This document shows, one piece after another, positions 2,581-46,915 of a stretch of 64,000 nucleotides of DNA; within the stretch, counting starts at the first letter, position 1; the number at the start of each line of letters is the position of its first letter. Source of the stretch: Schmidtea nova (Eukaryota). A program made the translations under genes and the position numbers. Under the pieces are notes generated by a model. That model was given only the letters and a program-made list of their open reading frames with translations, was not told the origin of the DNA and made no database searches. The DNA lies in assembly GCA_044892505.1 (NCBI GenBank), contig CM097882.1, positions 126,046,001 to 126,110,000 of the forward strand, read 5' to 3'.

Positions 2581-3042
2581 TTACAAATACACAGTAATTC
2601 TTTCGTCTATTTCGAGATTGCACATCGGGCATTTGTCGCAATTGGCTGCACAGATTCTACAAAACCGGAAATGTCCACATGGTAAAAACATGATTTTATT
2701 CTCTCTTTCTCGACATATGTAACAGAGTTTAAATTTCTTAGCTGTCTCAGTTCCTTGTATCGTCCACTTGTGGTATGTTGGAGTTAATTGTTGTTCTAGC
2801 TGTCTGCATTTTATGTTTACATCAGCATTTTCTAATCTCGTTCGGTACCACTTGTATCTAGTTGTTATATCTATTTTGTCTACTCTTTCCAATATTTTTA
2901 TCAGCTCTGTTGTCTCTTCAGTTTGTGTCATGGGTTCTTTGAATCCGGATTCTCTTATTCGACTTATTTTCTCGCATAATTCATCGTATGTTTTGTTTTC
3001 CGTGTTTAAGAATTCTTCTATTTCTTTTAATTTGTCGTTCAT
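2581..3042 (-). CDS. Coiled-coil + C-terminal C3HC4 RING protein (IAP/MDM2-type RING, putative E3 ligase), no BIR domain
   Basis: Intact 153-aa ORF with CYIC...FLPCGHFRFCRICAANCDKCPMC and a terminal ITVYL tail typical of C-terminal IAP-type RINGs. Intronless; an acceptor-like TTTAG lies 2 nt before the ATG. Confidence 0.85.
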   Translation of the reverse strand: MNDKLKEIEEFLNTENKTYDELCEKISRIRESGFKEPMTQTEETTELIKILERVDKIDITTRYKWYRTRLENADVNIKCRQLEQQLTPTYHKWTIQGTETAKKFKLCYICRERENKIMFLPCGHFRFCRICAANCDKCPMCNLEIDERITVYL

Positions 3043-3344: not shown

Positions 3345-3500
3345 TTTTCGGCTGAGGGGCACTTTAAAACTCCTGGTTATTATTGGATTCAATTTTCCGC
3401 ACAAAAACCAATTTAATCCCGGCTGAGTGGCACTTTAAAACTCCCTGTTATTGTTGGATTCAATTTTTCGCACAAAAACTAATTTCATCCCGGCTGAGCC
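3345..3500. repeat. 71-bp tandem duplication containing degenerate PBS copies
   Basis: CGGCTGAG recurs at 3349, 3420 and 3491; the intervening GGCACTTTAAAACTCC...TTGGATTCAATTTT-CGCACAAAAAC sequences align. Confidence 0.9.
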
Positions 3501-3504
3501 CCCA
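3487..3504 (-). promoter_or_regulatory. Primer-binding site complementary to the tRNA-Pro 3' end
   Basis: Minus strand TGGGGGCTCAGCCGGGAT versus the classical tRNA-Pro PBS TGGGGGCTCGTCCGGGAT (16/18), a few nt after the LTR-terminal CA. Confidence 0.85.
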
Positions 3505-3599
3505 AATTTATGTTGTTGGTCTCTGGATTGGGTTAAAACAAAAATAGTAAATTAAACTAATAATTATTTTTAAACGCTCTAGGGATTCCTCCATCCAAA

Positions 3600-3790
3600 A
3601 CCTCACATAAAATGCTTGCATATCACACGAGCACCCTCGATCATTTCCCTGTGATAATCGAGTTGGAAATGTGCAAGGTGTTTGAACAATGATGGGCAGG
3701 TGAGCTCTATTGCTAAAACTACTCCCCATTTATGTTCACGGGTTCGTCTCGCTGCCGATAGAAGGACTTACGCTTTTACTTTAATCTATC
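3600..3790 (-). other. Highly conserved non-coding U5 block (block A)
   Basis: Near-identical to ~16065-16250 while flanks diverge; diverged copy at ~29440-29615; contains stem CTCGATTAT...ATGATCGAG. Confidence 0.8.
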
Positions 3791-4118
3791 CGCATCCATT
3801 ATGTTTCATTTCAATGTGTCTTTAGCCCCCTTTCTTTACAATATATTTCAACTTTCAACTTTTCTTTCAGCCCCCTTCTTTACAATATCAACAAGTAATC
3901 TTTAGTCAATTACAATATATTATCTCTTTAATGTTTCTATTGTTTATTAGATTTATGTTAATCTTATTGTTAATTCTAATGTATAGTTAATTTAATCCAT
4001 TTTTTCCTTTAAATTATTTTAAATTTTTAATAAATCACTCTATTTCATATACTTTACGATAAAATAAATACAAAACAAAAATTATTTAATACGCGAAAAT
4101 AACTACATCACAGAATTC

Positions 4119-4712
4119 CTATTCAAAGTATTTGGTAATGTCTTCATCTGATATTGCAAAGTTCATAGTTAGATCAATTTCGGGAATTTCTGTTGATTGT
4201 TGTGCCAATTGCTGAAGAACTTGTTTCTTCCAGCGACGCTGGCGCGCTCCCATCTTGCTCTTCTTCTTCCTTTTACCATCTGGATTTGTCGTGTTCTTTG
4301 GTGTACTTGCTGCTATTGTTATTGCGCGAACCTGAGATGGTTCCTCGGTGTTCGTTCCTTTTGTGCATCCTGCTTTCTCGTCAGCCCAATGCTGATAAGT
4401 GATTGGACGAATGAGCTGGCTGAGCTCTTGAGTTAAATACGACGCCGTTACAGATTTTAGACATTTCTTTAGTTCCATCTTCGTCGCGTCCAATTCCATT
4501 TGGATCTCTTCGTTTGCTCGCTGTGAGCGTTGATTTTTTATAATTTGTGTTTTCATCTGCTCCGGACTGAACCAGCTTTTCTTCAGGTTTGAGATTATGC
4601 CATCGGCTTCTTTTATTTTTTCAGATTTCCGTAACATTTCTTTTTCGAGGCTGCGGATTATCCTCCATGCTTTATCCAATTCGGCTTGATTAGTTGCTGT
4701 ATTGGCTGACAT
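4119..4712 (-). CDS. LTR-encoded 197-aa protein: N-terminal coiled coil, Arg/Lys-rich motif KRKKKSKMGARQRRWKKQ, acidic/hydrophobic C-terminus; function unknown
   Basis: Intact ORF with a paralog at 16537-17127 (roughly 70% aa identity by eye). ELDKAWRIIRSLEKE shows 9 of 15 codons with synonymous differences and no replacements. Confidence 0.9.
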   Translation of the reverse strand: MSANTATNQAELDKAWRIIRSLEKEMLRKSEKIKEADGIISNLKKSWFSPEQMKTQIIKNQRSQRANEEIQMELDATKMELKKCLKSVTASYLTQELSQLIRPITYQHWADEKAGCTKGTNTEEPSQVRAITIAASTPKNTTNPDGKRKKKSKMGARQRRWKKQVLQQLAQQSTEIPEIDLTMNFAISDEDITKYFE

Positions 4713-4840
4713 TCTCTAAAATTCAAGATGATTTATTAACATGAAATTGGTAGTCTTGATTCGAACGATTCTCATACTTTTGACGGTTATCGATTGCTAA
4801 TTCAGGAAAAGAAAATGATTTACCTATTACACTTTCAACA

Positions 4841-4976
4841 CTGTCGCTATGTACAGCGATCAGATACATTTATTTCATAATACGTTTTATTTATTCACGC
4901 CTGTGCTATATACAGCAATCAGGTTACCAAATTATTTAAATAAACTAAGATCCACTGCCCTATGTACAGGGTTCAG
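4841..4976 (-). other. Three conserved stem-loops (class II) with sense-strand UGUA(C/U)AUA
   Basis: Plus strand CTGTCGCT-ATGTAC-AGCGATCAG (4841), CTGTGCT-ATATAC-AGCAATCAG (4901), CTGCCCT-ATGTAC-AGGGTTCAG (4955). Conserved at 17253, 17313 and 17369 with diverged spacers. Confidence 0.85.
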
Positions 4977-5357
4977 GATAAGCAATTATATTTAATTATT
5001 TATGTGGAATGTTTGATCCTATAGCCTATTGCTGCTATGTTACTTGCGTAGTAGATCACTACGCTATTAGAGTTATCGATTTTTGATAATGTTATTAAAA
5101 ATATGTTTTGTACAAATTCTTAACCGTATATCTGCCGCTCTATGCCCACAAACCCCAGATGTGACAATCGAAAAATATAGGTGAATACTCGGTGAATCTC
5201 AAGGTAAAATCAGATTACTAAAATCGCAGTTACATCTGTATCCAACTAAAATCAAACTCAACTCAACTATAAACTTAAAAAATCAATTCGGTTATAAAAT
5301 AAAAACTTCAACTGGCTATACTCCAGTGAAAAATAAGGTTAGAAATCAAAAAATAAA

Positions 5358-5478
5358 AATTCCTACCCTCTTCACGGCGCTTTACACCGGTCGGACGGCC
5401 CAACTGTACGGAGCAGTCATTCTACTCGGCACAGTATGCCTCCATTTCACCGATTGCACGGTGATCGGAGCCCCTTAA
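5358..5478 (-). other. Conserved GC-rich structured block (block B)
   Basis: Aligns with ~17768-17888; compensatory CACCG/CGGTG to CATCG/CGATG stem change; GGCA-CAGTA-TGCC hairpin. Confidence 0.7.
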
Positions 5479-5533
5479 ATCATACGTAATTTTCTACTAT
5501 AACTACGGTATATAAATAATATATATTCGCCTC

Positions 5534-5726
5534 CTTCCACTGATTTCACAGTGGAAGAAGCTCGACCCAAAAATTTATTCATAAAAGAATTTATACTTAT
5601 ACGTATTTGTTAGCATTCTACCATAAGATTATCTCCTTCCACTGATTTCACAGTGGAGGAAGCTTAATAAAATATAAATAGGTATATAGATATCTTTGCC
5701 TCCTTCCACCGATTTCACGGTGGAAG
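5534..5726 (-). other. Three conserved stem-loops (class I), CTTCCAC(T/C)G-ATTTCA-C(A/G)GTGGAAG
   Basis: Copies at 5534, 5636 and 5703 with unrelated AT-rich spacers; compensatory T-A to C-G change in the third; two copies at ~17940 and ~18020. Confidence 0.9.
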
Positions 5727-5857
5727 AAGCTTGAATATTTCTAAATTCAAAGAAAAGAATAAATCCTAGATAACATTTCATAAAGTTTATTGATAATCAC
5801 ATAATGGCTAACAGAAATCATAAAACAATAGTAACAAAATTATCAAAAATCAAAAAT

Positions 5858-6058
5858 CCATACCTGTTAGTTTTTTCAATAAATTCGTCTCACAAAAGTT
5901 GTAAATAACAAAATGTTGAAAATTATCATACATATATATTTAACTGAATCTGGATCAGTATTTATACTGACCAGATCAGATGCTGAACCAATCAGCGTGA
6001 AGCTGATGTTCAGATCGCTACAAATAATAAATTTCATTAATAATCAAATCGATTGGTT
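5858..6058 (-). promoter_or_regulatory. LTR promoter (two CCAAT boxes, TATAAATA at 5966-5959) and first 5' splice site (CAG|GTATGG, GT at 5863-5862)
   Basis: TATA-like (TATATATA ~18265), AACCAATCAG (~18291) and TAG|GTATGG (18158) are conserved in LTR2 despite divergent flanks. Confidence 0.6.
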
Positions 6059-6351
6059 TGCTTTAAATCGCTAACAATTTGTTGTTTTTGATTTTTAATA
6101 TTCTGTAATTCTTTTTCTTTATTATTTCTTTATTTTGCCTTAAATATAATTAAATATCATTGTTTCTTTAACACTTTTACATTTTCTATTTACTTTCTTC
6201 TAAATTTTGATAGAAAATTAATATTCTTTATTACATTTTAATTCGTTTTTTACTGATATTTCTCGTAATTATATTCATTTAATTTGTTCCTATTTATTTC
6301 TTATTATTATTATTTTTTATGTTAAATGTGGATCAAATGGTGGATCCAACA

Positions 6352-6985
6352 AAATTTAACCATGATACTTGCACTTTTTAAAATTTTAAAAAATTATTTA
6401 AATTTGAAATTAATCATCGATGACGTCATAGATTTGAAATTTGAAATGAGTCATCGAGGAGTCATCAATTTAAATTTTTAAAATTTTAAAAAATCTAAAA
6501 AATAACTTTGAAAAAAATAGCTGAGTGATCGATAACTCCGAAAAACAAAAAAAATTTGAGAAATAATCAAAATTGAGAAAGTTCAAAAAAAAATTGCTTA
6601 TTTTTCGATGAGTCATAAAAGTTTTGGATGAGTCATCCATTAGTAAGCGATTGGTCCAATAAAATTTTTTTTTTAAACAGAAAATTTTTCGAAAATATAA
6701 GATAACAGAAAAAAGTAAAAAAAGTAAATAAAAAAATGTTTTTTAAAAACAGAAAATATTTCAAAAAAAAGGTAAAAAAAATAAAGGTAAAAAAAAAGTA
6801 AAAAAAAAGTTTTTAAAAAACAGAAATTTTTTCGAAAAAAAGGTAAAAAAAGATAGAAAAAAATTTTAAAAATTTTTTTGACTCCCCTCGCACACGCAAA
6901 AAAATTGCCGCCCCCTACCCCCCAAGGGGCTTGGTAACTAATATGTCTTTGTTTGAATTTTTACGCCCACGCATTTCTACCTACT
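6352..6985. repeat. Dispersed repeat, truncated copy (family unassigned)
   Basis: Aligns with ~22018-22690 (AAATTT(A/G)ACCATGATAC...GATGAGTCATC...CCCTACCCC...TTACGCCCACGC); cut on the left by LTR1. Confidence 0.8.
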
Positions 6986-6989
6986 CAAT

Positions 6990-9725
6990 AAATATTGCAA
7001 AAAACATATAATAATATTATAATAAAGAAGTACAACACAAAAGTAATCTTAAAATTATATAAAACTGCCACATTTCTAACAAATCACAGAAAATAGACAA
7101 TATAAAATAATTTTCATTTAAAACAATTATAGAAAATAAAAAAATAGAGAAAAATCACATTTAGATGAATATATTCCACAAATAAAAAAATCATCAATGT
7201 GATGGCTGCTGATTTTTTACATTGCATAAACTTTCGATTCTGGGAGCTATATTTGTTATAGATAGGCGTAAAGCTGGGCTAATTTCCAAATTATTTCTTT
7301 GCTTGATTTTTATGAGCGTCATTGCGGAGAATGCAGATTCACACAAATATGTTGTTGAAAATGGTAGCAACACTCTCATTGATTTTGTATGTAAATCTGC
7401 ATACTCATTTTTAACTTGAATCCAAAATTGAATTTTATCTTTCGAGCTGAATTGTAATTTTAATGAAGAGTCGCAACTTAACTCTACTAATTTTTCCTCT
7501 TCCGAATCAGACAAGTCCACATATTTCCCTTTCGCATATTTCATGTTTCTGTAAAAAGTAGTCTTCGAACGCGTAAGAAATCCCTGCTAGATGTTCAGAA
7601 ATAATATTTGATAAAGACTCGGTATTCACATTCACTGTATTTAATAATTCTTCGAAAGAGTGGAACACTCTGCAGTTTTTTTCTTCAATACGCTTGCGCC
7701 ATAATTCTCTTTTTTTTGAATGCATCGATTTTATACCATAAATTAAAAATAGTAATGCTATTTTCTTGAAGACTTAAATTTAAATCGTTGAATAATGAAA
7801 ATATGTCCGACAAATATGCCAAATTTGCCATCCATTCGTCGTTGCGGAAAAAAGGCTAATTCTGAATTCTTTGTATTTAAAAAGGATTTAACTTCAAAAA
7901 GAGTCTTTGTAATATTCTTCCCCTCGACAGCCATCGTACTTCTGCATGAAGTAATAAATTTTCATGCCCAGATCCAATTTCATTACATAAAGTAGAAAAT
8001 AATCTTGAATTTAATGCGTTACTCTTGATATAATTTATGATTCGTATAGATTGAGAAAGTACGCAGTTCAGGTCTGGAGACATTTTTTCCCCACATAAAT
8101 GCTGTCGGTGTATGAAGCAATGAGTAAATATCATTCCAACTGCATCTACCTTTAAAATTTTTGCTGCGACTCCCGAATGTTTCTCTGTCATGCTTGCCGC
8201 ACCATCAGTACATAAACCAATACAATTTTTCCAATTTATTGATTTATTTTCGATGTATGTGTTGAGAGCTTTAAATATTTCTAAGTTAGTTGTGTGACTA
8301 GGAAGTTCAAGACAACAAAGTATTTCTTCTTTACTCTCGTTTATTTCGTGATCAATATAACGAACGTAACATAAAAGTATTGCTTTGTTAGACATATCAG
8401 TGGATTCGTCCATCTGAATAGCAAACAATGATTTGTTTACTTTTTGAATGAGTTGATCTTCAACATCAGTTGCTAATTCAACGATTCTTCGTTGAATTGT
8501 ATCATTGAAAAAAGGCAAACTTTTCATTTTACCTCCGGCTGTGGGGCCCAGTAATTCAGAGCATACGTTTATCAAACAAGGTTTGATTAAATTTTCGGCG
8601 ATAGAGTATGGCTTCTTGCATTTTGCGATTCTTAAGGCCACTAAATATGAAGACTTTACTAGATACTTGTCGACTAAAAAGCATTTTTTAAAAGATGTTT
8701 GATGTTTAAAGTCAAGGCTTTGGCTTTCAAAATAATTCAGGGGCTTATTTTGTAAGGTTGGATGTTTGGTTTTTAAGTGTCGTAGTAAGTTTGCTGGTTT
8801 CATACATTCATTTGATTAAACGTCCTTACAAATAACACATTGTAGCTTAGGTAATTTTTCTTCCGATTTTTGCCAAAGAATTAAACCAAATTTTAAATAA
8901 TCATTATTGTATTGACGAACAAAAATACATTTTCGTTTTGCCTGTGGTGAATCATTTTGGTAATTATTAATAATTTCACTTGTATTCGAAGTATTGAGCA
9001 TGTTTTTTGAAAAAGATTTTCAATTTTTCTTGGTATTCTCTTATTACTCATTTTTAAAAATACTAAAAATAAATTAATAATTAATAATTTTGATCATAAA
9101 TTATTTAAATTCAATGCTCAATACCTATTTAATTTAAAAGAATTAAGTTATAACGTTTTATATGCATAAAAAATAATGAATTGTTTAATAATCATATATC
9201 ATATATAAACAATAATAATTTCAGCAAATATACTTTTTTCCATCCACACGCTGTCAAATCGCACACTAAAATAATAAAATTTAACGGAAATGTAGTAACA
9301 ACTGCGTACCGAAACTTTTCCCTTCCCCTTCTTTGCAAACTCGTCTAGTTTGCATTTGACTCAACCGATCGCTCGTTGCATTTCGACCTTTTGCGCTCGG
9401 CCTCAGAGTGTTTTATAGTCACACGTAAATTAAATTTTATTTACTGGATGTACTGTGAAGATCAAATTATGTAGTAACTACATTGTAGTTGATAATGAAC
9501 TGATGTTATGAAGTAACACATAATATTTATTTTATGAAATTAAAAAAGTCATTTAATTATTTAGTTAAAAGTTTTTGTTAGCAAAAGTATAATAATTATT
9601 AAAAAGTTTCGTTATCATCACTTGAAATTTTCCGAATTTCAGTGAGAACCCTAAAACTTTCGCGGACCCGTAGAACTTTCCTGCGGACTGGTGCCTGTCC
9701 GCGGACCGGCTGTTGAGAAACACTG
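6990..9725 (-). mobile_element. hAT (Buster/Charlie-like) DNA transposon, one end missing
   Basis: Right terminus GTTGAGAAACACTG (rc CAGTGTTTCTCAAC) ends at 9725; no matching left TIR found; encloses transposase fragments. Confidence 0.75.
7194..9001 (-). pseudogene. Buster/ZBED5/SCAND3-like hAT transposase, frameshifted
   Basis: BED finger fragment (CVICKDV...MKPANLLRHLKTKH), FAIQMDESTD, CTDGAASM, CFIHRQHL, HAEVRWLSRG, LLPFSTTYLCESAFS split over 4-5 ORFs. Confidence 0.92.
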
Positions 9726-11445: not shown

Positions 11446-14400
11446 TTATTTAAATAAAACTGTTTCTTCTTCAGTTTGATCTTGGAATTGCTGATCTGGA
11501 TTGATTCTTGGATCGATATGTTGAAATATAACCAAGTCACTTTCCATATAATGGCCATATGCCAAGCTTTTATTTTTCGCAATCCATTTCTTTTTATCAT
11601 CTGCGTTTGTCAGTGCAGTCTTTTCATTTTTATAGTGTAAAAAGTTGATGATTTTTACTTGTGATTCTGGTTTGGGGAAAAAAAATATTTGGGTATTATT
11701 AAAACAGTTTAAGTACGACTGATGTTTTATGTCAGTACCCGCCAATGTTGCCCCTTTAGCTTTATTAGTTTCCTCGTCATCTAAAAGACTATAACATTTA
11801 GGTCTATGAAACACCCACTCCTGGTACTTAAGCCCTTTATTCTCGTCTTTGAACTTGCCAATGACAGAATCAAGGTTCCTACTGTATAATGGGTGATTCG
11901 GATTATAATTAGAAGTGTCAAGTAAGTTATCTCTTATCATGGCCGGTAAAAGAACATCAAGCTTACAATTTCTAATCTCAAGAAAAAATGAATCGGTGTC
12001 ACCAGCAACGATGTTGATTTCGCAGTTGAATTCGTTACGATATTTTTGTAACTCTTCATACTGCAGCTGGTACATTCTAAGTTTAGATAGATCCAGTACA
12101 GTTTAACCAATGTACCTGGGTCTATCCAAACACACAGATTTCTTATTCAGCAAGACGGCAACCAAATCATCGTCAATTTCGAAAGTCCTTTAAGTCTGGT
12201 ATTGGTGTCGATGTAATCCTTAAAAATTTATGCTTGTTTGAATTTAATTGCCCTATGGACATGAGTTATTTTTACTCCAAGAGAAAAAAAAATTTGAGAA
12301 GTCGTAAAATTTTTTTGTGAGAAGTCGTAATGCGTAAGCATCAACTTCTCAGCCTTTGAGCCAGGTGGACACATCTTTTCAGCGGCAACCTGCAAATCAT
12401 CCAGCTTGTCGTGAATCGAATCAGGAATTTCTAAATCGACTTCGATTGTAAACCCAAATGTTAATACTTCTAAATCAGCAGATTCACAGTAATAAATTAT
12501 TTTATTTTATTTTTTCCTATCATTTACCCATTTAAATTCTTTATACGGTAGTTTTTGGCTTAAAGCCCACCCATATAAATTATTTATATCTATATAAAGA
12601 AGCTCAGTGTCGTCAGAAGATACTACATGATGTTTGTTAACAAATGTTATCCCACCCCGGATCCCCCTTTCGAAAAAATTATATATCTCCATATCTTGAA
12701 GCAACTGGATAGGAGATTTTAAAGTCATCAAAGAAGAACTCCATGACATGCCTGGAATTCCCAAGAAACTAAGAGGCTCAAGTCGATTATGTGCAATGGA
12801 TTTTGCCCTAAACTGCTGAAAAAGTCGGCAAGTAAGAAAACATCCAATTTCAGATATATCATCATATAATCAAACAATGTTTCACAATTAAATTCATCCC
12901 ATATATGTTGAGCCTTTTCATACTCGTCGATATTAACTACCTTCCAAATTGGTGGCAACTCGTATGTATTTTGTAAAACCTCTAAAGAAGTTGCAAAATT
13001 ATATGGGAATATGCCTTTGGAAGTAATACTAGTCCCTATAAATTCGGATGAAGTAAGAGGAAAATCTGTTAAAGTCTTTACAGCATCGTTTAAGCTACAG
13101 CTTACAAATTGGCAAGAATCGATAAATTTAATAGTTAAACTATCGACTCTTGCATATAAAGTCAAAAACTTTTCACTTGTAGTAGGAATACAACTTATAT
13201 CCCATTTAACGAATTTATTTAAACCATACTTGAGGATATGATGCAAATCATATCCGCGTAAATTATGAAATATGACTGGCATGATGAATCTTATTTGTCG
13301 AGAAAAATTGCATTTAGAGCAAGCCGCACCCAAATATTTACCTGTATAATGGTCATGATCTTTAACCGGATTTCTCAAAGGTTTATTACACAAATAACAA
13401 ATTGTAGAACTACGAAATGATCTTATTTGTGAAGGGGAAAGATATTCCATTTTCTTTTTGGAATTATTTATAAAGTAAGGCAAAACTACTTTTTTTCCTA
13501 TATCGTTGATTTCAGTCAAAACCTCTTCTACGCAGTTAAGACCATAAGAGCTTTTATACGATTTTTCGCCAGTAAAGTTATTAATAAGCAACAAACCAGT
13601 GGAAATAGGTAAGTGACGTTTAAAATACTTATCGTCCTTGGGTAAAACAGCCTCAAAATCGGCATATACAACGAAAGGAGGGGTAACAATTTTTGACCAA
13701 TCTTTTAATTCCAAGTTCTTATCTGAAGGCAAAGTGTACAAAGTTGTACCTAACTGGTTTTTTGTACATAAAGCCTGATGTTTCTCAAAAGCTTCAGTCT
13801 TTCTAAATCCATTCAAGCAACGCTCGCACCAATTACATCTTATCCTAACATGCGTAACAGAAAGAGTGTCACAGTTCAAAAGCCTGTCAAGATTGGTAAC
13901 TCCTATATAGGGAAAAGAGTCACTTTCCTCTAACAAAATCAAATTAATTAGAGTGTCACCTACATTTGACCTATGAATAATATGAATAATATACGAATAA
14001 TACCTATGAATAATAATACCTATGAATAATATCTACAAATGAATGTTTCATGACTTCATCCTCCTCATTAATATTATTTAAATCATACTCATAATAGCCA
14101 GCCCAAAGTTTTTTTGCTTCAAATTTGGGTATATTACATAATTTCATTGGAAAATCAGAAGGATCGAAAACAGGGTCTGAGGGATTATAATTAGATGCTC
14201 TATTTCTATAATGACTGTTAACCTCATCATATTTTAAAATAGCCAAAATGCTATATATAAAGCACAAGTTATCAGTATTCTTTACATTGACAGTGCAATG
14301 TTTTGCATTTAATGATGGTGGAGTTTAACAAGAACCTTTACCGCTCAATCTACTTATTTGCGAATATTTTTTAAGTTTAAAGCTTATTTCTTTAATTTTA

Positions 14401-14570
14401 TTTATTGACCAATTGCTGCCATTTTCACAGACTTTAGTCATTTTTTCACTTAATAGAGCAATACCTTCATCACTCATTGGCTTTGCGGAATTTAATATTA
14501 TAAGAGATTGAAATTCCCCAGTTTTTTCAAATTCTATATCAATGCAAAATTGTACTTTTATATATCCCAT
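11446..14570 (-). pseudogene. Protein-primed family B DNA polymerase (Polinton/Maverick type) with endonuclease-VII-like Zn motif; copy 1
   Basis: GSNW, CFIYSILA, PPFVVYADFE, KDHDHYTGKYLGAACSKCN, VIFHNLRGYDLH, KFIDS, KLDVFLLAD, LYIDINNLYGWA, AGDTDS, GKFKDE, RPKCY, DDKK. Several frameshifts; motif B (KxxxNxxYG) region deleted near 12190. Confidence 0.92.
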
Positions 14571-14621
14571 TTTGGAAATAACTGAATTAAATTTATTTAA
14601 TAAAGGCGAATGAATAATTAA

Positions 14622-15002
14622 TTAATTTAAATTTAAAGAATTCACATCCATTTTAACAATGGCATGAGATTTTTTCAAATTATATTTAACCAAAGGTTCA
14701 ACAGAACCGCCATATTGGACAACATGCAAATTAGGAATAACTAAAACATTGTCATTTGATGAATGAACATCTTCATCATCGGATAATACAATTATTTTAG
14801 CAGGTTTAGGACAAACAGAAACATTTCGTCGTTTACTTTTATTAATTAATGCGAAAAGACTTTTCTTAGTGCATGATAATTGATTTAAATGGAGATAATG
14901 TTGGAAATAAAAATCAATGTAATTTATATGTTGGGCGCTCTTACATGTGGGACATAAATAGAAGGTGACTTGGTTATTTATAATACGATAGTATCGCTCC
15001 AT
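14622..15002 (-). CDS. Hypothetical protein with CxxC/His Zn-binding-like motif upstream of pPolB
   Basis: 126-aa ATG-initiated ORF (CPTC...HYLH; QYGG), same strand and directly upstream of the polymerase. Confidence 0.4.
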   Translation of the reverse strand: MERYYRIINNQVTFYLCPTCKSAQHINYIDFYFQHYLHLNQLSCTKKSLFALINKSKRRNVSVCPKPAKIIVLSDDEDVHSSNDNVLVIPNLHVVQYGGSVEPLVKYNLKKSHAIVKMDVNSLNLN

Positions 15003-15984: not shown

Positions 15985-18657
15985 TGTTGGGCGTGTTGGA
16001 TGGGTTAAAACAAAAAGATAAAATAATTGAACGCTCTAGGGATGCCTCCATCCAAGACCAAACATAAAATGCTTACGTATCACACGAGCACCCTCGATCA
16101 TTTCCCTGTAATAATCGAGTTGGAAATGTGCAAGGTGTTTGAACAATGATGGGCAGGTGAGCTCTATTGCTAAAACTAATCCCCATTTATGTTCACGGGT
16201 TCGTCTCGCTGCCGATAGAAGGACTTACGCTTTACCTTTACTTTAATCTATCCGCATTCATTATCTTTTAATTCAATTTTTTCCTCTGCCCCCTTCTTTA
16301 CAATATCAACAGATAATTCCAATTAATTACAATATGTTATCTCTTTAATGCTCCTATTGTTTATTATATTTATGTCAATCCTATTGTCAATTATAATCTA
16401 CATTTAATTTAATTTTAAATTTTTAATAAAATACTTTATTTCCAATACTTTATAATAAAATAAATACAAAAACAAAAAAATATAATTAAGCTAAATTTTT
16501 ATACACAATTCAATAATACTAAAAATTCTCAAGTCGTCATTCAAAATATTTGATAATATCTTCATCAGTTACTACGAAATCCATAGTTAAGTCGATTTCC
16601 GGTATTTCTTTTGAATGATGTATCAATTGTTGTAGGACTTGCTTTTTCCAACGACGCTGACGTGCGCCCATCTTACTCTTCTTCTTCTTTTTAATCTCTG
16701 GATTTCCTACGCTTTTTGGTGTAGTTTGCATTGGGATTTCTCGAACCTGAGATGGTTCATCCGTATTTGTTCCTTTTGAACAGCTTGACTTCTCTTCAGC
16801 CCAATGCTGATATGTAATTGGACGGATGAGTTGTTTCAACTCTTGATTGAGGTAAGAAGCCGTTACCGATTTCAAGCATTTCCTTAATTCTATTTTAGTT
16901 GCTTCCAGCTCCATTTTATATTCATCATTCGCTCGTTGAGAGCGTTGATTCTTGAGAAGTTGGGCCTTCATTTGGTCTGGGCTAAACCAGCTCTTTTTTA
17001 ACTTTGCTATGGTGATGTCGGCTTCTTTTATTCTTTCCGATTTATTGGATATCTCCTTCTCAAGGCTGCGGATAATACGCCAAGCCTTGTCCAATTCTGA
17101 TTGAAGAGTTGCTGATGTGATTGACATTTTTCTAGAATTCAAGATGGTTTATCAATATGAACTTGGTTTTTTTTTGGTTTGAATAACTCTCATAATTTCT
17201 ACGACTATTAACTTCCAATTCAGGAAAAGAAATAATATACATCCTTTCAACACTGTCGCTATGTACAGCGATCAGATACATTCATTTGATAATTCATTTC
17301 ATTTATTCACACCTGTGCTATATACAGCAACCAGGATAATAAATTATTAAAAATAAAACTAAGATCTACTGCCCTATGTACAGGGTTCAGGATAATATAT
17401 TACATTTCCTTATGAATTATCTGTGTTGAATATTTGATCCGTTGATGATGCTCTATTTGTGTGGTAGATCACTGAACTACGCTATTAAAGTTATCGATTT
17501 CTTACATTCTTTCATTTAAAGGTGTATGCTACACTTATTCCTAAGCTTTATATCAGCCGCTTTATGTCAACAAACCCCAGATGTGACAATCGTAAAAATA
17601 GGGTACTATTCTGTTAATCCAAATAGGAAATCAGATCAATAATAATCACATCTATTATTATCTCAAAAATAAAATCAATCTATGATTATCTCAAAATTAA
17701 AATTAAACTCAAACTCAAACTGGTTATACTATCCAGTGATAAAAAGTGTTAGCATTTATGGTTAGTAAAATCCTACCCTCCGAGTGGCACTTTATACCAG
17801 TCGGACGGCCTAACTGTACGGAGCAATCTTTTACTCGGCACAGTATGCCTCCTTTCATCGATTTCACGATGTTCAGGAGCCCCCTTGCATAATAATACAT
17901 ATCTATACTTAAATACAATATATAATATAAATTCGCCTCCTTCCACCGATTACACAGTGGAAGAAGCTCGACCAAAATATAATCCTGAATAATATAAATA
18001 ATCTAATACCCTTGTCTCCTTCCACCGATTACACAGTGGAAGAAGCTTGAACAAATAAAAAGTATAACTAAAATTATTCATAAAACTTTTAATTGTTAAT
18101 GACAATAATGACAGAAATCATACAAATATTAACAAAAATAAAAATCAATAACCCATACCTAGTATCTATCTGGATTGAAATAGAAAGTTTCAGTAAAATC
18201 TAACTAGATCAATACTTGCAAAAAGCTTGAAAAAATCATTGAACTCATCTGAATCTGCATCAGTATATATACTGATCAGATCAATTTTTGAACCAATCAG
18301 CTTGAAGCTGATTATCAGACCAATACAAGTTCATTAAAATAATAAATTTTTATTAAAACTAAAATCGATTTATTTTTGTTTTAAATAACTAAATTTTCTT
18401 GTTTTGATTTCTAATTTAACCTAAAATAATTATATTTTCCACTCTAATCTTTCATTTTTCCTGTTACGTTTCCACATATCTTATTTATTTTTTAATCTTT
18501 TTATTCCATTAATTATTCCATTAATTATTTTATTTTTATTTATTCTACTACTTTACATTTAAATCTTTATGATAATATTATCCTAATTTAACATATTTAT
18601 TTTATTCTATTATTATTGTTTATTTAATTAAATGTTGGTCATTTGGTGGACCCAACA
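15985..18657 (-). mobile_element. Solo LTR (2673 bp, LTR2), paralog of LTR1
   Basis: TGTTGG...CCAACA ends with 4-bp TSD CATG (15981-15984 and 18658-18661); collinear with LTR1. Confidence 0.92.
16537..17127 (-). CDS. LTR-encoded 196-aa coiled-coil/Arg-rich protein, paralog of 4119-4712
   Basis: Intact ORF; ATG at 17127 aligns with the LTR1 ATG (the track's 17142 start is a TTG extension). Confidence 0.9.
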   Translation of the reverse strand: MSITSATLQSELDKAWRIIRSLEKEISNKSERIKEADITIAKLKKSWFSPDQMKAQLLKNQRSQRANDEYKMELEATKIELRKCLKSVTASYLNQELKQLIRPITYQHWAEEKSSCSKGTNTDEPSQVREIPMQTTPKSVGNPEIKKKKKSKMGARQRRWKKQVLQQLIHHSKEIPEIDLTMDFVVTDEDIIKYFE

Positions 18658-21739: not shown

Positions 21740-22695
21740 TTGTTTAAATATTATGACCATGAAAAGATATTTTCAATTAGATATATAATTTGTTTGAAAT
21801 TTTTGTTTCAAAATTTTATTTTTACATCACACACCTTCAAAGATAATACCGTCGTGTGTATCTCGCGAAGGGCTTTCGAACGATACCAATATTTACCGAG
21901 GTACTTTAAATTTTTAAAATTTTAAATTTGTGATACAAATTTTTATTTTTTTCGATCAGACACCTTCAAAAATCATACCATCATGTGCATCACTGAAATG
22001 CTTTTCTAGCGATACCAAATTTGACCATGATACCTGCACTTTTAAAAATTTTTAAAAATTATTTAAATTTGAAATTAATCATTGATGACGTCATATAACT
22101 CAAATTTTAAATGATTCATCGATGCCTCATCGGATGAGTCATCGATGAGACATGTCGATGAGTCATCAATTAAAAATTTTAAAAACTTTTTTAAAAATTT
22201 AAAAAATAACTTCTGAAAAAATAGCTGAGTCATCAAAAACCCCGAAAAACAAAAAAAATCAAAATTGAGAAAGTTCAAAAAAAATTTGCTTATTTTTCGA
22301 TGAGTCATAAAAATTTTTGATGAGTCATCGATTTATAAGCGATAGGAAATTTTTCGAAAATAAAAGATAAAAGTAAAAAAAGATAAATAAAGTAAATAAA
22401 ATTTTTTTTTTTTAAAACAGAATATATTTCAAAAAAGGTAAAAAAGTTTTTAAAAAAAAAGTTTTAAAAAACAGAAAATATTTCAAAAAAAAGGTAAAAA
22501 AAACTAAAAAAAAGTTTTAAAAAAAAGAAAATTTTTCGAAAAAAGGTAAAAAAATAGAAAAAAATTTTTTTAACCCCCTCGCCCAAGCAAATTTTTTTGC
22601 CCCCTACCCCCATATGGCTCAGTAACTAATATGTATTTGTTTGAATTTTTACGCCCACGCTTCTCTTTGTGTTTGATTCCATACATCTACCTACT
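21740..22695. repeat. Dispersed repeat, longer copy of 6352-6985, with internal duplication
   Basis: ACACCTTCAAA...CGATACCAA segment occurs twice (~21830 and ~21960); the right part aligns to 6352-6985. Confidence 0.75.
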
Positions 22696-42300: not shown

Positions 42301-44841
42301 AATAGATTTTTCACTTTTATCCTCGATAAAAATAAAGTTAAATATTAATTATATTTCATTTAAACCAAAATTAAAAAGCTAGTTACGCCTCTGGTCATAA
42401 ATAAATAAGAGAAATTCAATTATTTATTTCTAAAAATTGAAAAGCTAAATTTGTAAATTTGTCAAGGGCGTCAAAAACCTCTATATTTAACAATGTTAAT
42501 CGTATTTAATATACAACTTTTTCCATACACAACTTTTATATACTTTATTTTCATATCAAAGTTCACTCTACATGACCAAACATCCGCCGCGAAATATTTG
42601 ATGCATATTTCAAAGCAACATGATTAGAATATAAAATATAAACTAAATAAATACAAAATTTTTTTATGTATTTTCAAATTAATAATATCTTAACCAATTA
42701 GAATTTCTAGAGTTAATTACAATAAAATATGATTATTTATATTTTACTAATTGACGAAAACTCACATGGTAACATTATTTTTAATATAGACCATATATAT
42801 TATTTATACGACTTAAAAATTTATTTAAATACAAGATTATTTGTCTTATTTTAATTGTAAAAATAGAAGAATATAAGTTACATAGATTATTTTTAATTTT
42901 AATTTTCCATCTAAATATCAGAGAAATACAGTTTTATACTAATAGCAATAACATATTGCTAATGGGNNNNNNNNNNNNNNNNNNNNNNNNNNNNNNNNNN
43001 NNNNNNNNNNNNNNNNNNNNNNNNNNNNNNNNNNNNNNNNNNNNNNNNNNNNNNNNNNNNNNNNNNNNNNNNNNNNNNNNNNNNNNNNNNNNNNNNNNNN
43101 NNNNNNNNNNNNNNNNNNNNNNNNNNNNNNNNNNNNNNNNNNNNNNNNNNNNNNNNNNNNNNNNATATTTGTAGCCAATGTCTAAAATTAATCAAAATAA
43201 AATTTTAAATAGATATATTTCTTATGTGTAGGCGAATTATTTATGTTTAATTTAAATAAAAAAATTTGTCAAATAAAATTTACATAACAACGAATTCTGA
43301 AGATCAACGCATTAATTTTATTCTTCTCTAAATTCCTAAAAGAAGATAACGTGACTTTTTAATTTGATTTCTAATGAACGTATTCTTAAATATTTATTGA
43401 CTAGTTAACCGAATGGGAAATGTAATTGTGACACTTAATTATATCTTGAATACGGTTGTATTTTTATCATTCCTACATTTATTTAAAAAAGAAAAGCTTC
43501 TACTGAAAAGTTTTCCAGAGGCCGTAGAATATCTTGTTTTTCTCTAAGACAAATTGTAATAGATTTAAAGTTTCCTCTGTAAGTATAAACTAAAACAAAA
43601 AATCGTGATTTTTCGTTTATTTTTTTTTCTATGAATTACAAAAAATAAATTGTCAACATTTTCAAATTTATTTGTTAATTTTTTTCATTATTTATAAATA
43701 TTTTCATCAAATTTAAAAATGAGTATACATAGAGGCCGTAACATTCTTGCAAGAATTCAATACTTTCAGTTTGGAGCTGTATTAAAAAATCATGAAAGTC
43801 AACTCAACTTTGGTTTGTGTATTATCTAGACACTGATGCCTCCACTCGAGCGAAATAACCGGCATCGAGGAACAAAGTCGTATAAAGCCGATTTTTTTAT
43901 AGAATAGAACTCTGAGACGAAAATTATTTCGAGTCATTTTTGAACTGAATTTAAATTTTCTGGTTTACAGAATCTAAATGTTTTTTCTGTAAATTAAAAA
44001 AATTTTTTTTTTCAAATACCTCCAATATAACATTAACGTATCAATATGATAATATATAATATATAAAAGATATTAAATATACAATAATATAATATAATAA
44101 ATATAATATGATAATTATATTTAAGATCTCGAATAATTAATATTTGTCTGATTCAGCAGTGATTTAGAATTTTTGTTTCATTTTTTTCGCATCATGTGAA
44201 ACCAAACTGATGTTCATTTTATGTTATTCTGAACATAATGTCAATTAAGGCCATTTGTAGCATGATATTACATTTCTAATTTACATTCTGACAATATTAC
44301 TCATTCTTTAAAAGTTCATCTTTATTATATTAGTGAAAGACAAGTCCATGTAAAATTCATGATTGTATTTGTGAAAAAAATCACGATTTCCTATTTTTAA
44401 TCAAGATACTGTATAAGAAATGGAACATAATTTTAATGGATTATAGGTGCCTAAATTATCATTTTCACATTAAATATTAATTCCATTGAAAAACATATTT
44501 CCTTTGTCATATTTTTGTCACATTGACATTAATTCTAAGTGTTTTTAATTTAATTATTATCATTTTTATTTTCATCATTGATATTTTATATTTTACACTT
44601 TAATTTTAGAATATTTTTTTCATTTTTTTAAAGTGAAATATTTATTTTATTTATTAAATATTTATTTAACTATTGCGTCTATCGATACATTTATTGAAGC
44701 TGATGAATTATTTTATCAAATGTATAGAAATTTCACATTTACTATGCGAATTAATTTAAATTCGTATATCTCTTTTAGCTGCTGAAATAATATAAGATAA
44801 GACAATAAAATAGCTAAACATTTTTATTTAAATTCCAATGT

Positions 44842-45641
44842 AATTGTTGATTGATTATTTCGCTTTTAAATTGTTGATTGAATATTTGCTTTTGAAATTG
44901 GTGATTGAATATTTCGCTTTTGAAATTGTTGATTGATTAATACGCTTTTGAAATTGTTGATTTAATATTTCGCTTTTGAAATTGTTGGTTGAATATTTCG
45001 CTTTTAAAATTGTTGATTGATTAATACGCTTTTGAAATTTTTGAATGATTATTTCGCTTTTGAATTGAGGAGTGATTATTTCGCTTTTGAAATTGTTGAT
45101 TGATTAATACGCTTTTGAAATTGTTGATTTAATATTTCGCTTTTGAAATTGTTGATTGAATATTTCGCTTTTGAAATTGTTGATTGAATATTTCGCTTTT
45201 GAAATTGTTGATTGATTAATACGCTTTTGAAATTGTTGATTTAATATTTCGCTTTTGAAATTGTTGATTGAATATTTCGCTTTTGAAATTGTTGATTGAT
45301 TAATACGCTTTTGAAATTGTTGATTTAATATTTCGCTTTTGAAATTGTTGATTGAATATTTCGCTTTTGAAATTGTTGATTGATTAATACGCTTTTGAAA
45401 TTGTTGATTTAATATTTCACTTTTGAAATTGTTGATTGAATATTTCGCTTTTGAAATTGTTGATTGATTAATACGCTTTTGAAATTGTTGATTGATTATT
45501 TCGCTTTTGAAATTGTTGATTGATTATTTTGCTTTTGAAATTGTTGATTGATTAATACGCTTTTGAAATTGTTGATTGATTATTTCGCTTTTGAAATTGT
45601 TGATTGATTATTTTGCTTTTGAAATTGTTGAGTGATTATTT
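44842..45641. repeat. 28-bp minisatellite, ~28 copies, with a partial 84-bp higher-order pattern
   Basis: Unit TTTCGCTTTTGAAATTGTTGATTGAATA with three variants recurring in order. Confidence 0.95.
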
Positions 45642-46915
45642 CTTCTTGCTTGTATTTTTTAAATCCTGAGAAAAAGACAGTCTTTTGGTGATTTAAACAA
45701 TTTAGTTTATTTTTGTATATAAATTAATATTTGATTTTAATATATAAATATAATGATATAATATTTAATTAAATTACTGTATATAAAAATATTGTACTAA
45801 TATATAAATAACGGAGGCACTACATCTCTCATAGAATAATGCTTACTTTATAAGTAACTAAGAATTAATAAAATTTCAATTGCAACAAATGTTAGATAAG
45901 AAATATAAATTAATTATTCATACAAACGTATAGCTTCTGGTAAAGAAAGGGTTTTTAATATCATTATATCATAATCAATTTCCTAAGTCATCTTAAAAAT
46001 ATTGTAAAAACTTATCAAAATAACATTGAAATAGGAAAGATAATATAAAGATCCATCATAATAATATAAGAGGTCATTTTAAATAATTTCATTTAACAAC
46101 AAATAGTGCATGACAGGCATTGTTTACTTTTTTACTTTTTCAGGCAGAATAATGCTGATGCTTGAAGGTTAAAATTAAATTTACATTTATATTACTGTTT
46201 TTAACGACAAAGCGAATTTTCATGGAATAAACAAGTTTTATTGTGTTTTCTTTTTGTACCAAATTTGTTGTTATCAATATTCGTAGTAAAGAATAAATTT
46301 TTACAAAAAATTTATATTTAAAAAATAATTTTCATTTAAAGACAATTTTCCATGTGATTCTAATTTGTTCTCAATTCAACTTTAATTGTTATTACTAATT
46401 GAATTATTACTTTGAAAATTACAAATAATCTAAAATAAATCCATTTCATAATTGTTTTCTTTTTTTGTAAACGATATTGTCAGAATGAAATATTAGCTTT
46501 TCCATTTAAATAACTTTTTTTCTTGCTAAAAATATTTAGATGTTCTTTAAATGAAAAAATTTTAATTGATTTTAGTTTAACAATTTCACTGGTTTGCAGT
46601 GAAAATAAATTTGAACATTATTTCGGATGAATAAGTGTTATATTGATTTTCATTGAAATTTTTGTGACACCAAATTTGCTGGTTTTTAGACATTTTCTTT
46701 TTATAAGTGTTAATAATTATTTATTTTTAATTAGTTTTAAAAACTGTTGAAAATAATTATTTCTAAATAAATTTATTGTCATTATTAAGAGTTAACATAG
46801 GTATAAAAAGAGCGCCTCGTGAATAATGAAGAAAAAAATTTTTCTAACCAAATGTATTCAGTCGCAAGAACATAATCTTTGAATGTTACATTTTAAGACT
46901 CGAGATTTCTTAGAC

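Follow-up and report, generated by a model that had tools for sequence, protein, structure and literature searches.

A spliced gene for a predicted coiled-coil protein inside the LTR of a Burro-like retrotransposon of Schmidtea nova: a possible Rev-like regulator

Introduction

Can a retrotransposon LTR contain a complete spliced gene, and does the product of such a gene act on the RNA of its own element? Known LTR coding sequences are pieces of U3 expressed via upstream splicing. The question is raised by a 64,000-nucleotide stretch of Schmidtea nova DNA (the window; contig CM097882.1, positions 126,046,001 to 126,110,000), in which an earlier note described an LTR gene for an Arg-rich protein together with RNA hairpins that the protein would bind. 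Precedents exist for Rev-like proteins in gypsy elements (CERV) and for ORFs in LTRs (MMTV). Coordinates are those of the window, and all features given with coordinates lie on its minus strand.

Results

The LTR belongs to a Burro-like gypsy element

The LTR under study (LTR1; 2841 bp, 3511..6351) is the 5' LTR of a ~25-kb Burro-like gypsy retrotransposon. It has TG...CA ends and a 4-bp target duplication (TSD), ATTT; its partner, located 22 kb away and beyond the window, is 99.6% identical. A PBS-like 18-mer, which we take to be tRNA-Pro-like, is present 6 nt past the LTR (3487..3504). The element thus displays the paired LTRs with TG...CA ends, TSD, and PBS of Ty3/gypsy elements. Pfam matches comprised CCHC, Monjiviricetes fusion, protease, ankyrin, and TRAF/MATH domains. 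RT, RNase H, and integrase are absent from this copy owing to a 3037-nt gap relative to copies that carry them; in an autonomous relative, the three domains are found inside this gap, directly after the protease, in the order PR-RT-RH-IN. A 153-aa RING ORF (2581..3042; zf-C3HC4_3, E 8.5e-12) is located past the PBS and is preceded by an acceptor-like T-rich TAG, and a T-rich TAG is present 2–3 nt upstream from the ATG of four internal accessory ORFs. Together with its RT-bearing relatives, the element shares the organization of the planarian Burro/GYPSM1 elements, which are ~28 kb long and encode a single polyprotein of ~5000 aa (CCHC gag, an in-frame mononegavirus-like fusion protein between gag and PR, PR-RT-RH-IN, and ankyrin repeats) in addition to RING and TRAF/MATH accessory ORFs (PMC6431247). 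The window's copy, which lacks RT-RH-IN, was likened to Burro by this published description.

A second LTR with the same layout (LTR2; 15985..18657, TSD CATG) contains a 196-aa ORF (17127-16537) that is 75% identical to that of LTR1. The earlier note had compared the two LTRs, and the order of features is indeed the same in both; LTR2, which has no PBS, is however a solo LTR from another subfamily of family 1 rather than the partner of LTR1. Three paralogous families of LTR genes were found, with identity down to ~24%; a TATA-like box and a donor-like site were kept in all of them, as was an acceptor directly preceding the ATG, and an identical or nearly identical PBS-like motif follows the 5' LTRs of families 2 and 3. 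The ORF is not a separate nested insertion, as it occupies the same position in both LTRs of 10 of the 10 two-LTR elements examined and in the three families. A second LTR ORF, located behind its own acceptor, is present in sister families 2 and 3. No remnant of it was detected in the intron of the window's LTR (best E 0.10), and it had no Pfam match above the cut-off, a best Z of 3.6, no viral fold, and an Atlas score of 0.78.

Promoter, exon, intron, and ORF are contained in a single LTR

The CCAAT and TATA boxes, splice donor, ~1.15-kb intron, TAG, 197-aa ORF, AATAAA, and conserved 3' segment are all located on the minus strand as the earlier note had described. The putative U3 (5946..6351) contains a CCAAT box (6056-6052), a second one that reads ATTGG on the sense strand (5992-5988), and the TATA box TATAAATA (5966-5959), set within a conserved inverted repeat. 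The TATA motif was kept in 55 of 60 family-1 loci, and a similar box is found in families 2 and 3. In 51 of these 55 loci, a TCAG is located at +19 to +22 after the TATA box, with identical spacing in family 3. This conserved position suggests that transcription starts at the A of TCAG, near 5945, rather than at ~5935 as previously proposed, which would place the U3/R boundary at this point.

The non-coding exon 1 (5864..5945) ends at the major donor AG|GTATGG (5864/5863), which is kept although exon 1 diverges. A donor was present 94–132 nt downstream from the TATA box in all 55 of the 60 family-1 loci that keep the TATA motif, versus 2.6% of shuffles; the pattern included two rare variants added after inspection, AG|GTAY accounting for 53 of the 55. 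A YAG was found 0–4 nt upstream from the ATG in 59/60, 25/26, and 29/30 loci of families 1, 2, and 3, respectively, versus 154 of 1459 other ATGs of the window. For both counts, the loci are related by descent and hence are not independent. These sites delimit a GT-AG intron of 1148 nt (4716..5863) with a TAG acceptor 3 nt upstream from the ATG.

Two solo LTRs, L233 and L234, lack the equivalent of this intron at its predicted ends, and the nearest relatives of L233 break precisely at AG|GT and YAG|. Both copies were found by the distance separating the TATA box from the ORF. Since these LTRs have lost exactly the intron, the intron was spliced and the resulting RNA reverse-transcribed; on this indirect evidence from DNA, the spliced gene that had been proposed to reside within the LTR is real. 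No further intron-less LTR was found, whereas the ORF motif occurs in up to 881 copies. Two junction probes specific to the window's subfamily had 5 and 4 matches, all of them outside this LTR family. Four sequencing runs were uninformative on splicing: coverage of the intron and its flanks was DNA-like, and the splice junction was not among the 15 joints listed of 52.

The ORF is under purifying selection and encodes a predicted coiled-coil dimer

The 197-aa ORF (4119..4712) had a dN/dS of 0.08 in comparison with LTR2 and family medians of 0.097, 0.129, and 0.07, ratios that are rough because dS is close to saturation (dS was near 1 where dN/dS was about 0.1). The ratio for the basic block was 0.03–0.10, the value of 0.03 in family 1 being the lowest of all blocks. 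Internal stops were absent from 142 of the 150 best ORF matches, a set biased toward intact copies. These results indicate that the ORF is under purifying selection, which is strongest on the basic helix.

The AlphaFold2 model (mean pLDDT 73, pTM 0.30) comprises helices 3–45 and 50–100 around a WFxP kink, a short helix, a disordered linker, a basic helix, and an acidic-hydrophobic tail. The coiled coil noticed earlier was predicted here also: a parallel homodimer model scored 0.55, versus 0.15 for the best control, with runs sharing at least 89% of contacts at a pLDDT of at least 80. Of solved microbial homodimers, 21 of 30 attained the mark used for this comparison, as against 0 of 23 microbial single chains, and in eukaryotes 17 of 29 homodimers did so; long coiled coils, to which the model belongs, are a class not singled out in this calibration. 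The protein is therefore predicted to dimerize through a parallel coiled coil and to carry a basic helix.

The basic motif (KRKKKSKMGARQRRWKKQ, codons 147–165, 4218..4274) coincides with the block of lowest dN/dS and is kept as a helix across ~24% identity. In an alignment of 37 sequences, G155 was invariant and R159 and R160 were conserved in at least 90%. The motif had been described as Arg-rich, which does not hold for the window's copy: it is Lys-rich, with 4 Arg among the 11 K+R of 20 residues. In 35 of the 37 aligned sequences, the 20 residues contained 9–13 K+R, with 2–4 Arg in family 1, 4–6 in family 2, and 8–9 in family 3, where the motif is much more Arg-rich. The C-terminal match to a nuclear export signal (NES) was likewise no better than chance. 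With classes taken from PMC5358978 and some other patterns, 33 of 35 sequences matched some class, which differed by family; such matches were discarded as evidence since 44–96% of shuffled C-termini also matched. A candidate LC8/dynein-light-chain-like motif, CTKGTNTE (codons 116–123, 4344..4367), was identified in the alignment of the families by comparison with the motif described in PMC6607443. It reads VQT in most family 3 sequences, where it is canonical or near-canonical, TNT in family 1, and TDV in family 2, the central Gln being replaced in the latter two. Many peptides bearing the anchor fail to bind LC8 (PMC6607443).

The ORF does not correspond to a known domain. Nothing above the cut-off was obtained in Pfam, and no homologue was found in PDB sequences, Foldseek PDB, metagenome or viral contigs, or in the 5.8-billion set searched among near lengths with the single sequence and an alignment. 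The sole match in the 1.84-billion set, a 7-fold tandem coiled-coil repeat, was rejected; the best ESM Atlas score, 0.88, is a lead only. Searches of Pfam, PDB sequences, Foldseek PDB, and protein collections did not connect the protein, by sequence or by fold, with Rev, Rex, Tat, N, or CERV, short helical proteins being hard to link by such searches.

The intron contains arrays of folded RNA elements

Three class A hairpins (5730-5700, 5663-5633, and 5561-5531) have stems of ~12 bp and the loop U-GNAA-U. For the 16 commonest of their 26 variants, folding energies ranged from −14.8 to −21.2 kcal/mol, in each case better on the sense strand. A branched GC-rich element (5365..5470) includes a fourth, A-like hairpin; the alignment fold of its 28 copies reached −34.8 kcal/mol, with three pairs changed on both sides and none broken. 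Three class B hairpins (4976-4955, 4922-4901, and 4863-4841) consist of a short outer stem, a bulge, 5 bp, and the loop G-UANA-U. All five inner pairs were formed in 417 of 487 pattern matches, with several pair types per position. LTR1 thus contains seven hairpins (three class A, one A-like, and three class B) and LTR2 six. Repeated covarying hairpins are confined to the intron, and the compensatory changes and GNRA-type loops support the earlier proposal that it contains folded RNA elements.

Class B hairpins were found in families 1 and 2 and not in the introns of family 3, which nevertheless keeps the protein; the only family-3 locus with class B matches has them ~1.5 kb downstream from the ORF. 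A neat pairing of protein and hairpins is weakened by this observation and because the folded element of the 3' end is common to all three families.

A conserved folded element follows the poly(A)-signal-like hexamers

The AATAAA at 3948-3943 is present as previously noted. It is one of seven such hexamers past the stop codon and may serve as an alternative poly(A) signal; it is not the best kept. The best-kept hexamers are ATTAAA/AGTAAA (3775..3785): A[ATG]TAAA was present 25–60 nt upstream from the anchor of the 3' element in 100/107, 24/36, and 13/17 copies, versus shuffled fractions of 0.23, 0.34, and 0.12. No poly(A)-tailed copies were found after the 3' element.

The 3' element (~200 nt, 3575..3773), which is likely to be U5, consists of nested helices leading to a GNRA hairpin, a long second hairpin, and a candidate pseudoknot. 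It had been termed ultraconserved, in agreement with a conservation by column of 98–99% over 57 copies. In 35 copies from the three families, 11 of 24 predicted pairs changed on both sides, and further compensatory pairs were found. The helix GGCAG/CUGCC was mismatched in 6 of 123 copies of families 1 and 2, the candidate pseudoknot showed no covariation within these families, and the folding z of the whole element was only −1.68. The search of Rfam identified no family for the element, the only matches, to U2 and ceN65, being at chance level. HDV, pistol, hammerhead, and IGR-IRES identities were considered and not supported.

Separately, recombination mapping revealed dips near the promoter and exon 1 and in the 3' UTR, which fit either the boundaries of R or poor alignment of AT-rich tracts.

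Discussion

The explanation that we favor, with a probability of about 0.45, is that the LTR protein is a Rev/Rex-like regulator of intron-retaining RNA. The splice junction, the purifying selection, and the covarying RNA structures are established; the steps that follow are inferred. Pol II would initiate near 5945. By default, the donor at 5863 would be joined to the LTR ORF and the RNA would end near 3760, generating a ~1-kb mRNA that any LTR, solo LTRs included, could produce; R would be ~2.2 kb long. Alternative ends would be near 3920 or, as in HTLV, past the 3' element. The same donor probably also serves the acceptor-like sites of the four internal accessory ORFs, spliced-leader trans-splicing, which is known in flatworms, being an alternative at these sites. 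The packaged genome must presumably retain the intron, given how rare intron-less LTRs are (two, as against a maximum of 881 ORF-motif copies), although a packaging signal in the intron would explain this rarity equally well. The basic helices of the coiled-coil dimer would bind folded RNA found only in unspliced or read-through transcripts. Once accumulated, the protein would cover the hairpin arrays of the intron or the 3' element, shifting the output to unspliced RNA and allowing full-length genome RNA to escape splicing and nuclear retention, also in trans for RT-less elements such as the window's copy. Against this reading, the Lys-rich motif could be only a nuclear or nucleolar localization signal.

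Known systems resemble the LTR gene in part. As for HIV Rev/RRE, HTLV Rex/RexRE, and MMTV Rem/RmRE, a small protein from a spliced mRNA combines a basic motif and predicted self-association with structured RNA in an intron or LTR, the RRE being located in unspliced and singly spliced RNA (PMC12789967). The genes for Rev, Rex, and Rem are not wholly inside the LTR; no sequence or fold similarity to these proteins was found, and the NES is unsupported. Closer to the host element, the C. elegans gypsy element Cer1 makes a novel accessory protein, CERV, via a spliced mRNA, and CERV is needed for export of unspliced Cer1 genome RNA (PMC10309623). The window's gene differs from CERV in residing entirely within the LTR and in encoding a basic helix together with a predicted coiled coil. 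Coding sequence within the LTR is also known for MMTV sag and HIV nef (PMC12789967), in both cases in U3, whereas here the promoter, exon, intron, ORF, and poly(A)-like signal share one LTR. This arrangement implies an R of ~2.2 kb, retroviral R regions being 15–250 nt long (PMC12789967).

It is less probable that the hairpins serve Gag or host factors in cis, as packaging, dimerization, or CTE-like export signals, and that the protein has a role unrelated to them, most likely countering piRNA or chromatin silencing as a nuclear coiled coil that recruits or titrates LC8. GNRA loops are general RNA–RNA docking motifs and could serve as such here. In family 3, the protein was found without class B hairpins in the intron, and retroviruses select unspliced RNA through structured cis-elements to which Gag binds (PMC5035971). 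The coiled coil is followed by the LC8-like motif, whose form in family 3 is near-canonical, Piwi-guided silencing in Drosophila requires LC8 (PMC7861614), and targets of SMEDWI-2 include Burro elements (PMC8532177). However, families 1 and 2 have another residue in place of the central Gln of the LC8 motif, and the basic helix is under tighter constraint than any other block, beyond the usual need of a plain NLS.

An improbable reading is that the protein acts on nascent RNA in the manner of lambda N or Tat, binding the boxB-like class B hairpins to obtain read-through at the poly(A) site in the 5' LTR and thereby a change from short mRNA to genome RNA. With an R of 2.2 kb, the 5' LTR would hold a complete poly(A) site in need of bypass, and the basic helix and the class B loop G-UANA-U recall lambda N/boxB, the hairpin fitting the GNRNA loop above a U-A pair that N binds and varying at the extruded position (PMC12027372). 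This is a resemblance in a short motif only: the loop is one base too long, the setting is eukaryotic, there is no homology, family 3 introns yielded no class B hairpin, and the poly(A) site is only predicted. Even less probably, the protein would activate the LTR promoter in trans at the DNA level, in the manner of Tax or Tas, the RNA structures being independent from it. The dimeric coiled coil with a basic region corresponds to the general bZIP-like design, and a conserved inverted repeat surrounds the TATA box. On its N-terminal side, the basic helix is nonetheless separated from the coiled coil by ~50 disordered residues, whereas the bZIP basic region abuts it N-terminally, and the second LTR ORF, present in families 2 and 3, is a further candidate for the activator role. 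That the ORF and motifs are functionless hitch-hiking remnants fits the facts that no recorded RNA run contains the stretch and that no homologue was found outside the genome, but it is very improbable, being largely refuted by the dN/dS of about 0.1 at a dS near 1 and the exact intron loss, together with the compensatory RNA changes and the 142 stop-free ORFs among the 150 best matches (again a set biased to intact copies).

On novelty, the earlier note had asked whether the family was already described. The host family apparently is, as Burro-type, and the LTR gene is unmentioned in the parts of the Burro literature covered; the section of PMC6431247 on these elements gives no ORF, intron, or RNA structure for the LTR. 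CERV was the only LTR-encoded or Rev-like gene encountered in the Burro and gypsy literature; outside that set, Grohme 2018, Repbase, and Dfam may annotate the ORF. A complete spliced gene inside an LTR had no precedent in the literature searched, which did not extend to the original Burro paper.

A broader reading, which we regard as possible though doubtful, is that the LTR is a self-contained regulatory mini-genome, a Tax/Rex-like cassette evolved independently by a gypsy lineage, in which one promoter and one donor would provide two proteins by alternative splicing, one of them lost in the window's family. The basic dimer would read the GNRA-type hairpin arrays of its own intron, and hundreds of solo LTRs would supply the protein in trans, setting the activity of full-length and RT-less elements genome-wide.

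The analysis adds two protein families without homologue in the searches made and several covarying RNA structures absent from Rfam. It bears on how giant env-bearing retrotransposons export an intron-containing genome, a question for which CERV is the sole gypsy example found. The planarian host makes the idea directly testable by RNAi and in situ hybridization, and piRNA-pathway knock-down data showing de-repression of Burro already exist. Because the spliced gene is complete inside the LTR, every solo LTR is a potential source of the protein; if the broader reading is true, solo LTRs, usually viewed as inert scars, would control the activity of the elements genome-wide.

Host element and LTR families

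The genome around the window is AT-rich and comprises 1.25 Gb. The 5′ LTR of the window element (6351-3511, minus strand) is 99.6% identical to a 3′ LTR located 22 kb away, and the element is flanked by a 4-bp target duplication (ATTT). The LTR at 18657-15985, named LTR2 in the earlier note, is a solo LTR with its own target duplication. Internal ORFs specify CCHC knuckles, a Monjiviricetes fusion domain, a protease, ankyrin repeats, and TRAF/MATH, and a RING ORF is located after the primer-binding site (PBS). Three of the five larger elements fetched contained an additional 3037 nt 3′ of the protease; in the one scanned, this segment harbored RT, RNase H, and integrase in a single ORF of ~5000 aa. 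The description of Burro/GYPSM1 fits the window element and its larger relatives (PMC6431247), which makes a planarian host probable.

LTR pairs ~22.2 kb apart were numerous among the genome matches, and the elements checked at this spacing, including that of the window, were devoid of RT-RH-IN, which suggests an amplified non-autonomous subfamily. Spacings of 16.7 and 19.4 kb define further deletion classes. The LTR is followed by three PBS-like repeats (3510-3340), and the long leader before gag contains a 71-nt tandem array (1188-2126). The insertion site of the element is a high-copy host repeat (6349-6872), a second copy of which, at ~22.0 kb (22014-22576), provides an empty site with a single ATTT. 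The window also contains two related copies of broken DNA-polymerase-B-like ORFs (11446-15002 and 57407-59138), which we take to be Polinton-like, a tandem satellite of ~1 kb with a 28-bp unit (44779-45785), and, presumably, hAT-like and Tc1/mariner-like transposase ORFs and a β-tubulin-like fragment (7194-8803, 50347-51378, and 63196-63831).

The coordinates assigned to features of the LTR were confirmed on the sequence, including the 197-aa ORF (4712-4119, minus strand) behind a 1148-nt intron. Exact genome matches numbered 858 for a 21-mer of U5 and 881 for an ORF motif. Two paralogous families, 2 and 3, were found via position-sampled LTRs; their proteins share 31-35% and 22-25% identity, respectively, with the window protein (family 1), each family has at least 150 matches in the genome, and the same PBS, RING ORF, and gag followed one 5′ LTR of each. 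The TATA motif was kept in 55 of 60 family-1 loci, and in all 55 the donor lay 94-132 nt past it (2.6% of shuffles); exon 1 is poorly conserved even though the donor is kept. YAG was found 3-4, 1, and 0 nt upstream of the ATG in 59/60, 25/26, and 29/30 loci of families 1, 2, and 3 (background 10.6%), counts that overstate independence because the copies are related, the agreement of three families being the stronger point. In family 3, a CTAAT resembling a branch point is also seen, together with a pyrimidine tract. By sequence comparison, these LTR features are present beyond chance.

(TA)n or (TAA)n microsatellites directly abut the LTR ends at six loci (L233, L234, L114, L119, L110, and L115), hinting at an insertion preference. 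Eleven near-identical LTR copies in two clusters (G000:C2:449.35-449.46 Mb and 455.10-455.55 Mb) suggest segmental or tandem amplification. At L139 and L163, head-to-tail LTRs from different families or subfamilies, the downstream one lacking its 5′ end, suggest recombination between families.

Loss of the intron

The genome was searched for a TATA motif 110-170 nt from the DKAW codons of the ORF. Two matches were obtained (L233 and L234; none in the control), both being complete solo LTRs whose ends are normal and from which the intron is missing. With the L233 junction as query, all 39 other matches fell on one side, those of exon 1 stopping at or before base 148 and those of exon 2 beginning at base 147. 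The six best exon-1 relatives continued with AG|GTAT, and the six exon-2 relatives inspected had TTTTAG| at the same base. In L234, the acceptor spacing equals that of the nearest relative, and the donor relative is only similar, not identical. The proposal that the LTR gene is spliced is thus borne out, the nearest relatives of L233 breaking off exactly at donor and acceptor; reverse-transcribed spliced RNA is the simplest reading of these LTRs. L233 is a mosaic of subfamilies, indicating that recombination was also involved in its origin. Two intron-less copies versus up to 881 indicate that the propagated genome retains the intron.

Proteins encoded by the LTRs

Median Nei-Gojobori dN/dS values, for which dS was near saturation and saturated pairs were left out, were 0.097 in family 1 (46 usable pairs, 15 sequences), 0.129 in family 2 (34 pairs, 9 sequences), and 0.07 in family 3 (11 pairs, 7 sequences). 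Families 1 and 2 had their lowest values in the basic block (0.03 and 0.05), which stood at 0.10 in family 3; values were highest in the linker (0.29-0.51). On these ratios, the main ORF protein is under selection. The description of this protein as Arg-rich fits the basic motif of family 3 and not that of family 1, in which the motif is Lys-rich. NES patterns occurred in 33 of 35 rows yet also in 44-96% of shuffles and so carry no weight.

AlphaFold2 predicted helices at residues 3-45, 50-100, 103-114, 156-174, and 189-196, and left the linker disordered; pTM was low (0.30). Residues 1-125 modelled as a parallel homodimer (0.55 versus 0.15 for the best control; contact agreement at least 89%; pLDDT at least 80), a mark reached by 21/30 solved homodimers and 0/23 single chains in a microbial calibration, and, in a eukaryotic one, by 17/29 homodimers but by just 1/7 of those lacking an older relative. 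An LC8-type motif C-terminal of the coiled coil is close in family 3 to the optimum VSRGTQTE (cited in PMC6607443); in families 1 and 2 its central Gln is absent. No homologue was found in Pfam, PDB sequences, Foldseek PDB, protein collections, the ESM Atlas, or metagenome/viral contigs.

A second ORF, absent from family 1, occupies the corresponding intron interval in families 2 (~164 aa) and 3 (~190 aa), directly preceded by CAG in many copies. Profile comparison makes homology between the two versions probable (E 2.5e-5, probability 75%). The protein modelled as a small α/β domain (pTM 0.67) with no fold match in structure searches. Both LTR ORFs were present in an element with 99.7% identical LTRs. 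The flank of one family-1 LTR contains a distant homologue of this second ORF (L005:212-661, minus strand; E 7.6e-5), which is preceded by an acceptor-like site of its own and may belong to a further element family.

A T-rich TAG also lies 2-3 nt upstream of the ATG in four internal accessory ORFs. Taken with the second LTR ORF, this gives the LTR donor the appearance of the major donor in a splicing programme like that of complex retroviruses, although the internal sites may instead serve trans-splicing of a spliced leader.

RNA structures

The intronic hairpins show the sequence signs of folded RNA, as proposed. Class A folds better on the sense strand and varies at the N of its GNAA loop. 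For class B, 487 pattern matches were obtained, of which 417 form all five inner pairs, and more than one type of pair occurs at a given position; the class is present in families 1 and 2, and none was found in 11 family-3 introns. Apart from one extra base, its loop is similar to the GNRNA loop in lambda boxB (PMC12027372). The three families share a 3′ element of ~200 nt (3575-3773). Over 35 copies, 11 of its 24 predicted pairs vary in both partners; its GNRA hairpin is 100% paired, and two outer helices have compensatory variants in 24/123 and 5/123 copies. Rfam returned no match for the RNA structures. In each of the three families, the best-kept poly(A)-like hexamer lies immediately 5′ of the 3′ element, which would make this element a U5 found only on read-through RNA, or a fold bridging the poly(A) signal and cleavage site, as in HTLV (PMC12789967).

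Novelty and possible function

The LTR gene is a real observation. The host family is already known, as are ORFs located in the U3 of an LTR and a Rev-like protein in a gypsy element. A complete spliced transcription unit for one or two proteins, contained within a single LTR, was not met in literature searches on LTR-encoded or Rev-like genes of Burro or gypsy elements, which did not extend to the original Burro paper, its supplements, Repbase, or Dfam. Retroviral R regions span 15-250 nt (PMC12789967), whereas this LTR would imply an R of ~2.2 kb.

Several functions were weighed. Packaging or CTE-type hairpins, with a protein unrelated to them and perhaps anti-silencing, have a basis in the literature (PMC5035971, PMC8532177, and PMC7861614, each in part) and are an unlikely second choice. 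A role in poly(A) read-through is more doubtful still, activation at the DNA level by the protein is improbable, and an absence of function is barely credible.

We favor, with a probability of about 45%, a Rev/Rex-like regulator. CERV, an accessory protein of the C. elegans gypsy element Cer1, shows that a gypsy element can evolve a Rev-like protein (PMC10309623). In its anatomy, the LTR module would work like a Rev module: a small basic protein is made from spliced RNA in Rev, Rex, and Rem, and here a predicted dimer would be made from the default spliced RNA. Every element transcript would start with a strong donor, and a poly(A) site seems to close the 5′ LTR; the element must nonetheless yield intron-retaining, read-through genome RNA. 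Small, dimeric, basic proteins of this type are the classical solution in retroviruses, and the LTR protein would solve the genome-RNA problem of these elements in the same way.
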